Shown here in pieces: positions 25,701 to 26,579 of a stretch of 28,431 nt of DNA. The position numbers and the translations under genes were made by a program. The notes beneath the pieces are model-generated. The model had not been told where the DNA came from and searched no databases. It saw only the letters and a program-made list of their open reading frames with translations. Origin of the DNA: Thermoplasmatota archaeon (lineage in GTDB: Archaea > Thermoplasmatota > E2 > DHVEG-1); NCBI GenBank assembly GCA_036625995.1, contig JAZKSQ010000001.1:1-28431 (forward strand). Reading direction: 5' to 3'. Each line of letters starts with the position of its first letter. Position 1 is the stretch's first letter.

Positions 25701-26563
25701 ATGTTTGTAAAATAATAGGAGTATTTCCAGCCTTTATTTTTTATCCAGGTTTGTGAACAAGGCCAAGTACTGGATTCGTTTTTCGAAATAAATACTTTAA
25801 ATTTAAGTGTTGAGTTTTTTTCAAAATCAGTAAATTTTATTTTTACAGCAAAGGGTACACTATATTTTTTATTTTTTTCAACTTTAGGTATAAACCTAGG
25901 GTATTTTTCAATTCTAATTTCTACAAAACTCTTTTTTTTATTTATTTTACCCGGAGTGGGTTTTTTTGATAAATAAAAATCTTTTATTGTATTGTTTTGA
26001 TCTGTTTCTTTTCTCCTGGCTAATGAATTCCCCTCTATAAATTTTTTTATAGGTTTTCCTGGAATATCCTTATAGTCTTTTCCCCATTCTAGAGAATCTA
26101 TTACATTATTTTTTTCGTCTAAAAGAATTAATTTATCTTGTTTATTTCCTAGACCATTTCCTATGCTTTTATCATCTGTACATAATTTTTTTGTTTCATT
26201 TGGTAAATCATATTTTTGGTATATTTTCGTTCCTTTATCTGTTATTATTGCGTATTTTTTAGGGTTAATAACTAAATTGTTTGACCCATACTTTTTATTT
26301 AACTCAATTTTATCTTTTCCATAATTGTCTTTTATTTTCCATCCGGTAATATTTATCTTTTTAGAAGTAGGGTTATACAATTCTAGCCATTCGTAATAAT
26401 TATCATTGTTTTTTGGATTGTACATCACTTCATTTATTAATATATGATTAAAACTTGAGTTGTTTTCGTTAGAAATGCTGATTGCAGATAGGTTAAATAA
26501 TAGTATTAAAAAAGTTAAAATTAGAAATATCGTTATTTTTGTTATTTTAAAGTTGATCTTTAT
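22757..26563 (-). CDS. Secreted, C-terminally anchored lamin-tail-domain / phospholipase D-superfamily protein (about 1268 aa)
   Basis: Two lamin-tail-like starts (ILINEVMYNP...EWLELYNP; LLITEIYY...EFIKIYNP), a CARDB-like domain (PDL...KAFLKNRGNEKS), two HKD motifs (HGKYIIID...GSCN; HNKGVIVD...GSINWN) and a C-terminal TM followed by RDWRKRKWN. The frame extends 45 codons upstream of the listed GTG through a signal peptide to ATA 26563. Confidence 0.85.
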   Translation of the reverse strand: MKINFKITKITIFLILTFLILLFNLSAISISNENNSSFNHILINEVMYNPKNNDNYYEWLELYNPTSKKINITGWKIKDNYGKDKIELNKKYGSNNLVINPKKYAIITDKGTKIYQKYDLPNETKKLCTDDKSIGNGLGNKQDKLILLDEKNNVIDSLEWGKDYKDIPGKPIKKFIEGNSLARRKETDQNNTIKDFYLSKKPTPGKINKKKSFVEIRIEKYPRFIPKVEKNKKYSVPFAVKIKFTDFEKNSTLKFKVFISKNESSTWPCSQTWIKNKGWKYSYYFTNMTNKKDKDSFLKIFYLRLSKGYNHYIKNIENSSSAYIFVKIKKENYIYKDATKVALLDLDNSTKNATSGGFIIGEAKINKTVYGNETILLTKNNVTKAIYRTENNQIDEGHISKNGYYKLPAPVGDNYTLRIFTKQKEIIKDKLSVKQGRYNFKVKKTPEIIFLRKNQKKSILISIKNTGDFEDTIKIDLKQKNRQLQLDLNKRKINLEPNKEKNISLEIKNYGRVISKENELTINISSTNDINIIKTRRMAIRARGPDLDFKKIKILDSKNKAKKLFGQGEKIKIKAFLKNRGNEKSSKVNVRFYLIEKYSKRIIGTEYYEHIGKYQKYPTIEIFTSNIEPGEYKVFITVNSTENKFELNPLNNDIREYIKIFDTSPNGKERQLLITEIYYHSRPNLKNEFIKIYNPTKKRIDISKWYITDDPFSPFFKQNKIIFPDKTYISPHATLVVTQNAYYYNFETGYFPDFEYLEDSMENISQMITGNDFYLNNIGDFVSLKNDFNHTIDLVVYGNKKNYNSSEWNGKTISLSGEGIILKRKEDNDEKSYIDQDQASDWRNPRLYKIGQSRFNPSKFTLNSNITTFVSPDCSYDVLINQIRKANSSIYINMYEFESIFILDEIIGALSRNVSVKILLEVSPVGGISEKQKYVLSKIRDHGGKIRALRSVKDRKIYKRYTFNHGKYIIIDNETLIIGSCNFVEEGYPFEPTYGNREWGICIENKVISNYFKKVFLDDWNPKRHDSRDVDTIKVNPYRIDTKKQKISGSYKPKQKSKYFEKNISITPVFSPDNSLISILNMIKNAEESIYIEQLYIYKNWTDGKINPLLKELVSKSKQGIDIRIIINYNSNYEDSIKKCKQTKGYLEEKNIKVKFIGTKNTPFINIHNKGVIVDNKSVFIGSINWNSNSFLKNRETGVIIKDKEITSYFKSTFKYDWNIKTSNVKNNYKEKGKKLLIFSNKNTIYITSIYLLTVLIIVRDWRKRKWN

Positions 26564-26567
26564 TTTT

Positions 26568-26579
26568 CCTCCTCACCTT
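26568..26579 (-). promoter_or_regulatory. Strong Shine-Dalgarno sequence for the PLD gene
   Basis: AAGGTGAGGAGG immediately upstream of in-frame ATA 26563; it contains the in-frame TGA that bounds the ORF. Confidence 0.7.

Follow-up and report, generated by a model that had tools for sequence, protein, structure and literature searches.

A putative AUA or AUC start codon for an LTD-PLD surface protein gene behind tRNA-Cys in a Thermoplasmatota archaeon

Where does translation begin if the part of a gene that encodes the N-terminus contains none of the usual start codons? This question is raised by a gene on the minus strand of a 28,431-nucleotide stretch of DNA from a Thermoplasmatota archaeon, uncultured and from sediment (contig JAZKSQ010000001.1), referred to here as the window. 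According to the original prediction, a strong Shine-Dalgarno (SD) sequence directs initiation to ATA, or else to ATC, upstream of the GTG that is listed as the start of this gene.

The 5' end of the LTD-PLD gene

Counted from the ATA, the full gene spans positions 22757..26563 (minus strand) and encodes a surface protein of 1268 amino acids. Two lamin-tail domains (LTD) and two PLD/HKD domains make up the part recognised by Pfam, and a membrane anchor lies at the C-terminus. The matches to PLDc_2 (E-value 4.5e-45, 153 bits with a curated cut-off of 27), LTD (3.1e-31, 108 bits, cut-off 34.3) and PLDc (1.3e-10, 41 bits, cut-off 21.9) all pass; a CARDB match is weak and stays below the threshold. 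The gene is most likely intact, and its product is predicted to be secreted and membrane-anchored.

Downstream of the tRNA-Cys gene (26656-26586), the minus strand shows AAGGTGAGGAGG and an in-frame TGA, then ATA 26563 and ATC 26557. The codons read TGA (26575-26573), GGA GGA AAA, ATA (26563-26561), AAG and ATC (26557-26555), and the frame continues to GTG 26428 and ATG 26425 with the translation *GGKIKINFKITKITIFLILTFLILLFNLSAISISNENNSSFNHILINE|VMYNP. Both the list of open reading frames and a direct reading of the minus strand bear out that the 45 codons between the TGA and GTG 26428 contain no in-frame ATG, GTG or TTG. This stretch (26429..26563, minus strand) encodes a signal peptide and the beginning of the lamin-tail domain. 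We judged Sec-type signal peptides by eye, looking for a positively charged n-region, an h-region of about 12–15 hydrophobic residues and a c-region with small residues. All three are visible in the window (n-region KINFKITK, h-region ITIFLILTFLILLF, c-region NLSAISIS) as well as in all orthologs. With the ATA as start the n-region reads MKINFKITK, a length comparable to that in the orthologs. As cleavage would remove the signal peptide, the N-terminus of the mature protein would carry no trace of the start codon. Since about one in ten codons is a stop in non-coding frames of this genome (32% GC), and since the signal peptide is found there in every ortholog, the open stretch exceeds chance expectation. 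GTG 26428 indeed lies within the lamin-tail motif, as had been claimed, and the Pfam LTD match reaches further upstream. It begins at residue 36 counted from the ATA, i.e. 10 residues before the GTG, so a start at the GTG would truncate the domain.

The SD upstream of the ATA, correctly described earlier by its TGAGG at 7 nt distance, proved to be a double one. Read directly, AAGGTGAGGAGG (26568..26579, minus strand) consists of AGGTGA overlapping AGGAGG, and both hexamers fit GGAGGTGA, the archaeal consensus, which also precedes canonical starts in this genome. The in-frame TGA (26573..26575, minus strand), which closes the PLD frame on its upstream side, is located within this element. The first candidate start, ATA (26561..26563, minus strand), is spaced 9 nt from GGTGA, for which the calibrated range is 6–10 nt, and 4 nt from GGAGG, a spacing that is rare in the calibration for this genome. 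The alternative candidate ATC (26555..26557, minus strand), suggested by spacing and by the orthologs, lies 10 nt from GGAGG (calibrated range 6–15 nt, mode 9–13) and 15 nt from GGTGA. Each codon thus matches just one of the two SD registers. The start could be either of them, and the sequence favours neither decisively.

In the orthologs, the signal peptide is present at the same place without exception, and none of them starts at the internal GTG or ATG. Those with a start of their own usually carry TTG at a distance of about 6 nt from the SD; the orthologs of the same genus have a TTG start behind SDs of the GGGAGG/GGGGT type. Altogether TTG follows the SD in 18 cases, ATG in three, ATC in four (L009, L024, L297 and probably L027) and CTG in one (L339). 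Because the closest ortholog is merely 49% identical, conservation of this particular ATA is not demonstrable.

Near-cognate starts and the initiation machinery

A survey of the 5' ends of long open reading frames in this genome yielded 125 with an SD and a canonical start, a further 14 with an SD and ATA, ATT or ATC, and two with an SD and ACG. ATH codons at the right SD spacing were found in 17 of 42 cases in frame, whereas the out-of-frame count was 3 of 89 (Fisher p = 1.5e-7); compared with codon usage (9.4%), the in-frame fraction gives p = 9e-8. Near-cognate starts account for approximately 10% of the SD-led long frames and for approximately 1–2% of all long frames. A first, crude survey that counted any SD 3–11 nt from any of the first 80 codons had shown no excess of ATH (ATA 3.8% versus a background of 4.0%). 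It was superseded by the 5'-end survey, since ATA is too common a codon for such a design.

We compared four of these starts (genes C65, C163, C145 and C203) and that of an aminotransferase gene with their orthologs. The ATT of C65 occupies the position of TTG, GTG or ATG in most of 24 orthologs, and the ATT/ATC of C163 is kept together with its SD in all five genomes of the genus. The ACG of C145 corresponds to ATG in nine orthologs and recurs as ACG in G003; the ATA of C203 is shared with G008, and ATG or TTG is aligned there elsewhere. These exact matches or recurring odd codons at four starts argue against sequencing error. In the aminotransferase gene, the proposed GTAGG-8 nt-ATA arrangement was found as described. 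The ATA (28077..28079, minus strand) aligns with the ATG of eight orthologs (M-V-V-N-I-E-R-L), and an AGGTGA (28085-28090) is located 5 nt upstream of it. GTG 28088, which is in frame with the gene, falls inside this SD. An upstream frame of seven codons ends with a TGA within the same AGGTGA, 5 nt before the ATA.

Only two of 15 near-cognate starts are situated at operon junctions, and we rejected translational coupling as a general requirement on this ground. Another genome from the family, the closed G006, has about five such starts against 29 canonical ones behind an SD in a sample of 400 kb. For G025, from the same order (44% GC), there were at most one or two candidates; the surveys of the outgroups G037 (67% GC) and G036 (53% GC) returned mostly spurious open frames and were uninformative. 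As judged from the surveyed sequences, this low-GC lineage of Marine Benthic Group D type appears to use near-cognate starts behind an SD habitually, and the PLD gene is one instance. In a literature search of incomplete coverage, ATH starts were not reported for Marine Benthic Group D.

Throughout the order, the initiator tRNA carries C33 in place of U33, a feature in which it resembles the initiator tRNA of animals and plants. C33 could open a route to AUH and ACG starts, either by loosening the anticodon loop or because the t6A37 modification is lost. A variant initiator anticodon was rejected, as the anticodon is CAT and the second tRNA with CAT is tRNA-Ile-like. We also rejected loss of aIF1 as the cause: PF01253 is present in 38 of 41 relatives as well as here, where the aIF1 gene (C185) starts at ATG behind GGAGGAAGGAG. 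The presence of aIF1 speaks against near-cognate starts in so far as aIF1 of Sulfolobus solfataricus rejects AUU in vitro (summarised in PMC4705826). AUA is the commonest isoleucine codon here, and both a tRNA-Ile2-like gene with CAU and a TiaS-like frame are present. Recoding of UGA was rejected as well. TGA terminates 215 of 1176 long frames, and the median open length behind it is 8 codons, versus 10 after TAA, as expected for an ordinary stop.

The tRNA-Cys gene upstream

The tRNA-Cys(GCA) gene (26586..26656, minus strand) was identified with ARAGORN and is the only tRNA-Cys gene that the program found in the assembly. It shows the cloverleaf, the GCA anticodon and the U73 discriminator (its last base is T). 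Its end at 26586, 22 nt before the ATA, had escaped the original prediction; the strong SD lies within these 22 nt. A tRNA-Cys gene is located upstream of the PLD gene in 19 of 20 relatives and at 61 distinct junctions. No run of at least five T follows the tRNA-Cys gene, whereas most other tRNA genes of this genome have a T-rich stretch downstream. Since 22 nt leave no room for a promoter and an oligo-T terminator is absent, we infer read-through from the tRNA-Cys promoter; the PLD gene is most likely co-transcribed with the tRNA. By eye we identified a TATA-like CTATATATAT (26684..26693, minus strand), which ends 28 nt upstream of the 5' end of the tRNA and is the putative promoter of this transcript.

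A frame of 48 codons (26573..26719, minus strand), seen in the ORF list and by frame analysis, starts at ATG 26719, passes through the tRNA-Cys gene in the PLD frame and ends at the TGA within the SD. An AT-rich, P1-like box is visible 21 nt upstream of this ATG. This frame may be a relic or a relative of the through-tRNA frame of a sister clade. There, in 26 distinct sequences that cover at least three genera, an ATG before the tRNA gene opens a frame that spans the tRNA completely and runs on into the signal peptide. No alternative start for the PLD frame was found in these 26 sequences; in this short-spacer clade the leader, the SD and a start-like codon at the tRNA cut site are all absent. 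The upstream ATG is 100% conserved and follows 24 nt after a conserved TATA-like box. Variability by codon position in the through-tRNA leader (3.67/3.00/3.72) lacks an excess at the third position; the frame and its openness look constrained, the peptide sequence does not. As proof of coding the conserved ATG is weakened by L017 and L312: their frame is broken by 2-nt indels, yet both still have the ATG and the promoter box. The ATG could also serve the tRNA promoter as an initiator element. A separate candidate in the window, a +1 shift from GTG 26576 (GTG AGG AGG AAA AAT AAA GAT CAA CTT TAA), was rejected: it has no SD, is located 9 nt from the tRNA and occurs in no relative.

A joint reading of both loci, to which we give somewhat less than even odds, is as follows. 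In the sister clade translation would begin at an AUG without leader, some 60 nt before the sole tRNA-Cys gene; the entire tRNA, translated as GRVTKWLCGGLQIRIRGFKSLPAL, would supply the charged n-region for the signal peptide of the PLD protein, and each transcript would become either tRNA or message. The locus in the window would be derived from this state: the TGA within the new SD would cut the leader, and AUA or AUC would take over, perhaps permitted by the order-wide C33 initiator tRNA, which may allow AUH and ACG starts. We know of no described case of a tRNA lying within a reading frame, and our literature search, of incomplete coverage, returned none.

Proposed initiation and its relation to known systems

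Based on the window, the orthologs and the genome survey we propose AUA 26563 or AUC 26557, both near-cognate codons, as the point where translation of the LTD-PLD gene begins, behind the strong SD on a transcript that reads through from tRNA-Cys. We put the probability of this proposal at roughly three in four. The mRNA would arise by read-through from the tRNA-Cys promoter, and 3' processing of the tRNA may generate a short leader that bears the SD. The double SD would then hold the small ribosomal subunit above the near-cognate codon, and the ordinary initiator tRNA, with anticodon CAU, would insert methionine there. The PLD gene would be an instance of relaxed or exploited start-codon choice. 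Initiation at AUA or AUC, as originally predicted, is supported by the orthologs, the SD spacing and the genome survey alike.

The same arrangement of codons could also be read as termination and reinitiation. Ribosomes would start at ATG 26719, possibly a leaderless 5' end, translate the 48 codons through tRNA-Cys, stop at UGA 26575-26573 and restart 9 nt further on at AUA (or AUC) with lower start stringency. The open frame in the PLD register speaks for this, as do the conserved sister-clade ATG at a similar distance, which likewise opens a frame through the tRNA, the similar AT-rich box upstream of ATG 26719, and the comparable layout of the aminotransferase gene with its short upstream frame. 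Such an ATG is absent, however, from the other four genomes of the genus, in which the PLD frame varies relative to the tRNA (1, 2, 0, 2), and the ATG in the window, measured from the AACCTTCAAAAACC block, is not where the conserved one lies. Such a message would moreover be severed once the tRNA folds and is processed, 13 of the 15 near-cognate starts have no upstream gene for coupling, and an in-frame open stretch of this kind has a chance probability of a few percent to 10%. We consider reinitiation unlikely. The same frame bears on a different proposal, read-through of UGA 26575 from ATG 26719, which would give a product like the through-tRNA precursor of the sister clade; UGA is a normal stop in this genome, and a recoding signal was not seen. 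Together with initiation at GTG 26428 or ATG 26425, the sole canonical codons on offer, which would give a cytoplasmic protein without signal peptide, we regard it as the least probable of the alternatives. These internal codons sit in the conserved LTD motif INEVMYNP and have no SD, and the signal peptide that they would remove is kept by all orthologs.

Finally, the ATA might stand for a true ATG that was misread or misassembled, or the gene might have lost its start recently and been silenced. The assembly is a metagenome-assembled genome of 212 contigs with 84% completeness, and no relative above 50% identity is available to confirm the ATA. In C177, too, an ATG is out of frame by way of a run of 10 A, pointing to some indel problems or slippage sites. 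Decay is nevertheless difficult to reconcile with 1268 codons that contain no stop in a genome of such low GC content and with a strong SD that is still at the right distance. Error is at odds with the occurrence of ATA, ATT, ATC and ACG in 16 genes, not explicable by one error type, and with the recurrence of several odd codons in independently assembled genomes. An artefact or a decayed gene is therefore very unlikely in our view, and initiation at AUA or AUC behind the SD is retained as the preferred reading.

Near-cognate initiation has precedents in bacteria. NCBI table 11 lists ATA, ATT, ATC and CTG among its starts, and Escherichia coli pcnB starts at AUU. The same holds for infC, which encodes IF3, as described in PMC4705826. 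The PLD gene would resemble infC and pcnB in having AUH instead of AUG at a set spacing from a good SD, with the normal initiator tRNA as presumed reader and a weak start as the outcome. In contrast to E. coli, the host is an archaeon with eukaryote-like aIF1, aIF1A and aIF2, and the share of such starts given above compares with two genes in E. coli. A sign of autoregulation as in infC is absent here, and the aIF1 gene, as the fidelity-factor gene, does not have a near-cognate start. In ribosome profiling of Haloferax volcanii, near-cognate codons made up about 30% of the alternative putative initiation sites, which the authors set aside (PMC7261190).

In animal mitochondria tRNAs punctuate the transcripts, and the mRNAs so released begin with AUA and AUU. 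The position of the PLD gene is reminiscent of this punctuation: the tRNA directly precedes the frame, the start would be AUA, and RNase Z-type cleavage probably sets the 5' end of the mRNA. The enzymes of tRNA processing are reviewed in PMC3790967. Unlike in mitochondria, the released RNA would carry a 22-nt leader with a strong SD, so that the start would not lie SD-less at or near the excision site, and AUA is an ordinary isoleucine codon here. Transcription of tRNA genes together with a protein gene is also known from the thrU-tyrU-glyT-thrT-tufB operon of E. coli. In plants, dicistronic tRNA-mRNA transcripts have been described (bioRxiv 10.1101/2020.04.13.039131). One promoter appears to serve a tRNA gene and a protein gene here as well; in contrast to those units, the tRNA-Cys/LTD-PLD pairing is kept across a whole archaeal family and order, and in one clade the tRNA apparently lies inside the reading frame. 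If this last arrangement is confirmed, a tRNA and a protein signal would be packed into the same nucleotides by a new route, and their products would possibly be coupled.

Gene finders limited to ATG, GTG and TTG miscut this protein and approximately 1–2% of the proteins of the lineage. In the case of the PLD gene the signal peptide is lost, and a surface enzyme appears cytoplasmic. The weak start codon might limit PLD expression. The order-wide C33 initiator tRNA would provide a handle on t6A37 and start-codon fidelity, and AUA, AUU, AUC and ACG starts in Marine Benthic Group D-type Thermoplasmatota would bear on how strict archaeal initiation with aIF1 and aIF2 is.

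Start region of the LTD-PLD gene

The minus-strand LTD-PLD gene encodes a product of 1268 residues, counted from ATA 26563, with two lamin-tail domains (LTD), two phospholipase D/HKD domains and a C-terminal membrane anchor. It follows a tRNA-Cys(GCA) gene (ARAGORN; minus strand, 26656–26586) whose final base is the U73 discriminator. On the 3' side of this tRNA the minus strand reads ttcta-AAGGTGAGGAGG-aaaa-ATA(26563)-aag-ATC(26557)-aac-ttt. The TGA at 26575–26573, within GGTGAGG, is in the same frame as the long PLD ORF. The ORF listing places the start at GTG 26428; the interval between the TGA and this GTG spans 48 codons without ATG, GTG or TTG and translates to GGKIKINFKITKITIFLILTFLILLFNLSAISISNENNSSFNHILINE. 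The first LTD match begins at residue 36, 10 residues upstream of the GTG. No other of the 23 ORFs in the window is open over a long stretch ahead of its first canonical start. The original prediction placed the start at AUA 26563, or AUC 26557, behind a strong Shine-Dalgarno (SD) sequence. All its statements on the sequence, spacing figures included, were correct on re-reading, and its non-canonical start is supported by ortholog layout, a genome survey and alignments of ortholog starts. Judged from these comparisons, the chance that the gene is genuine and intact, encodes a surface protein and starts at a near-cognate codon is roughly three in four.

SD spacing was calibrated on 910 ORFs of the host genome (G000), measured to canonical starts. 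The distance from SD end to start is 6–15 nt for GGAGG (mode 9–13) and 6–10 nt for GGTGA. ATA 26563 lies at a fitting 9 nt from GGTGA and merely 4 nt from GGAGG; ATC 26557 lies at a fitting 10 nt from GGAGG and 15 nt from GGTGA. At the other near-cognate starts of the genome ATA and ATT are about equally frequent and ATC is rarer, which roughly tracks codon usage. Both codons are candidate starts, between which we give no preference; the predicted products are two residues apart.

The gap of 22 nt between tRNA and ATA is too short for an archaeal promoter with TATA and BRE elements. T runs appear within 5–30 nt behind most of the genome's other tRNA genes; no such run was found behind tRNA-Cys. 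On the 5' side, 28 nt separate the tRNA from the end of a TATA-like CTATATATAT. Together these features suggest that tRNA-Cys and the PLD gene are made as one transcript, whose cleavage at the tRNA 3' end may produce an SD-bearing leader of 22 nt. Contig C59 of the same genome seems to hold a further tRNA-mRNA unit, with an SD (GGGGGG) and ATG within ~22 nt downstream of tRNA-Arg(CCT). LTD surface proteins are paired with a tRNA a second time in the neighbouring family: in two of its genomes the initiator tRNA-Met gene precedes another LTD-domain gene of the same strand by ~170 nt (G025:C21:10426-10914, G031:C76:4959-5448).

Probable near-cognate starts and the initiator tRNA

The host assembly comprises 1.54 Mb in 212 contigs (84% complete, 31.8% GC), and TGA, TAG and TAA each act as stop. 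Relatives found via the PLD protein are MAGs listed under "Thermoplasmatales archaeon" or "Thermoplasmatota", e.g. SG8-52-3, a type which we take to be Marine Benthic Group D-type sediment archaea.

Our survey took in 1104 ORFs defined from stop to stop, each 150 codons or longer and with a stop upstream. An SD at calibrated spacing precedes the first canonical start in 125 of them. In 18 the frame opens with an SD and then runs for at least 20 codons without a canonical start. Fourteen of these 18 have an in-frame ATA, ATT or ATC (ATH) 4–10 nt behind the aligned SD, and two of the remaining four have ACG. The predicted SD+ATA arrangement is matched genome-wide by 14 SD+ATH and 2 SD+ACG ORFs beside the canonical ones, and the PLD gene is one of about 16 near-cognate-start genes. 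Behind the SD, ATH accounts for 17/42 in-frame codons vs 3/89 out-of-frame triplets (Fisher p = 1.5e-7; in-frame against 9.4% codon usage, binomial p = 9e-8). A 400-kb sample of the closed genome G006 (same family, 30% GC) holds ~5 near-cognate vs 29 SD-led canonical starts.

The affected genes are ordinary: a Xaa-Pro peptidase, ADP-forming acetyl-CoA synthetase, a racemase-like enzyme, several secreted proteins and possibly TiaS. In C65, ATT stands at the place of TTG, GTG or ATG in most of 24 orthologs. The ATT/ATC of C163 behind GGAGGT is kept in 5/5 genomes of the genus, and its remoter orthologs have ATG two codons away. C145 has ACG, common to G003, where nine orthologs have ATG (M-G-[VI]-E-N-L-D-K). 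C203 has ATA at 6 nt behind GGGGTGA, common to G008, with ATG or TTG elsewhere. The similar ATA 28079 originally proposed for the aminotransferase aligns with the ATG of eight orthologs, though a canonical alternative exists, an in-frame GTG three codons upstream within the SD.

Several further features were seen in the host genome. A 7-codon ORF (minus strand, 28077–28116; ATG ATG CAT TTA ATC AGT AGG TGA behind GGAGGGG), whose TGA falls within AGGTGA ahead of ATA 28079, may feed aminotransferase reinitiation. A two-codon ATG-TGA mini-frame (C145, plus strand, 11906–11911) lies just ahead of the SD and ACG of the acetyl-CoA synthetase. On contig C177 (oriented position 4940, minus strand) a stretch of ten A shifts an ATG out of the frame of a secreted-protein ORF, which suggests an assembly indel or slippage. 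In a gene for an NAD-dependent epimerase-like protein (C35, plus strand, around oriented position 415) an in-frame TAG (GGSGFIGSNLAEFL*IKKKFEF) separates the GxxGxxG motif from the remainder, which could mean gene decay, an error or recoding.

Reviews give AUG, GUG and UUG as archaeal starts, and S. solfataricus aIF1 rejects AUU (PMC4705826). Ribosome profiling of H. volcanii found near-cognate codons at ~30% of putative alternative sites, which were set aside there (PMC7261190). In the literature, which we covered incompletely, we found no account of routine archaeal AUH starts or of a tRNA within an ORF. The PLD start would be a variant of an already known start type.

The initiator tRNA-Met of the host (G000:C75:4936-5012, L390:37-113; further loci L391–L420) has a normal CAU anticodon in a CCCAUAA loop (C33). 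C33, known also from initiator tRNAs of animals and plants, is present in 27/27 genomes of the order giving a match (three families), against the usual CUCAUAA loop (U33) in three outgroups of the same class. Outside this order, multicellular eukaryotes typically have C33 in their initiator tRNAs, and C33 blocks t6A37 formation by bacterial and yeast enzymes (PMC8887486); t6A loss doubles non-AUG initiation in yeast (PMC4717488). A looser anticodon loop or missing t6A37 could therefore let the C33 initiator tolerate AUH and ACG. C33 is not sufficient alone, since a 394-kb sample of G025 (C33, 44% GC) held at most one or two near-cognate candidates. The ATG-to-ATA changes were probably supplied by AT mutation pressure. 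In seven genomes (G017, G021, G003, G016, G020, G014, G024; loci L399, L402, L406, L407, L417, L419, L420) the initiator gene begins with ATAAG in place of the expected AGCGG, with an unchanged 3' acceptor strand; this may mean that an intron or a split lies near position 5, or that the 5' end is a different one.

PLD orthologs and a possible tRNA within the reading frame

Orthologs were taken from 40 relatives (20 loci), named MAGs (15) and metagenome contigs (80) retrieved through the 3' half of tRNA-Cys, giving 61 distinct tRNA-Cys-to-LTD-PLD junctions. As the original prediction implied, a signal peptide before the I-N-E-V-M motif is encoded in 61/61, and a start at an internal Met in 0 of 61. 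In 29 junctions with adequate flanks, tRNA and PLD gene are separated by stops or a frame change, and 26 of these have their own SD and start: TTG in 18, ATG in three, ATC in four (one, L316, also has GTG beside the SD) and ATA in the window. Same-genus loci have TTG in 4/4. Side by side, the orthologs have a fixed layout of GGGGGA/GGAGGA, 6 nt and TTG; at the place of this TTG, L024, L297 and L009 have ATC and L339 has CTG. ATC is apparently the start in L027.

In 30 other junctions the hydrophobic core of the signal peptide begins at nt +2 past the discriminator. The distance to the INEVM end is 79 nt (24 times), 76, 82, 70 or 67 nt, each value leaving a remainder of 1 on division by three. 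These short-spacer junctions have no SD and often no canonical start whatsoever. In 26 of the 28 with upstream sequence, an ATG 18–22 codons upstream of the tRNA 5' end is in frame across the entire tRNA into the PLD ORF, as in MFLNSNLQKPLVY...GRVTKWLCGGLQIRIRGFKSLPAL, followed directly by the h-region (multi-genus; 26 loci among L004, L015, L023, L028, L030, L032 and L275–L354, e.g. L004:1327-1550). Leaders of 54, 57 or 66 nt are multiples of three every time and hold no stop in the ATG frame vs 29 and 84 in the other frames (mean pairwise identity 0.74). The ATG is invariant amid varying flanks, and 24 nt separate it from a conserved upstream ATTTTATC box (TATA-like, -25 to -32), the geometry of leaderless archaeal mRNAs. 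An own SD and start occur in 0/26 through-frame junctions vs 26/29 others (Fisher p = 1e-12, shared ancestry not corrected). The embedded tRNA is called as tRNA-Cys(GCA) and is the only full-length tRNA-Cys match in three genomes of this sister clade. Excess variability at third codon positions was not found in the sister-clade leaders. L017 and L312, with own starts, keep box and ATG although 2-nt indels break the frame, so the ATG may serve the tRNA promoter as an initiator element. Given these patterns, we assign the through-tRNA ORF about even odds of being real in the sister clade.

Two short-spacer loci, L014 and L323, have a different upstream type, with a frame into the tRNA without any canonical start. 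This type (L014:1377-1434, L323:1129-1303, L024, L027, L310) carries repeated CATAG(C/G)(T/G)CC motifs, ggatacgcatagggcgcatagctcc; in L014 and L323 an ATA lies ~20 nt after a TATAAAT box.

The window itself has a 48-codon frame running from ATG 26719 through tRNA-Cys to the TGA in the SD, in the same frame as PLD, which may be a relic of the through-tRNA layout. It would permit a variant of the start mechanism in which ribosomes end this frame at the TGA and restart at the PLD start. We regard such reinitiation as improbable. Across the genome only 2/15 near-cognate starts lie directly behind an upstream gene, which argues for primary initiation sites and not coupling products. Systematic sequencing error is ruled out by the independent assemblies and the four different odd codons.

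The putative in-frame tRNA and the C33 initiator tRNA are two side results worth their own follow-up. For the PLD family, the aligned starts suggest that weak start codons are preferred throughout and that near-cognate ones arose several times.
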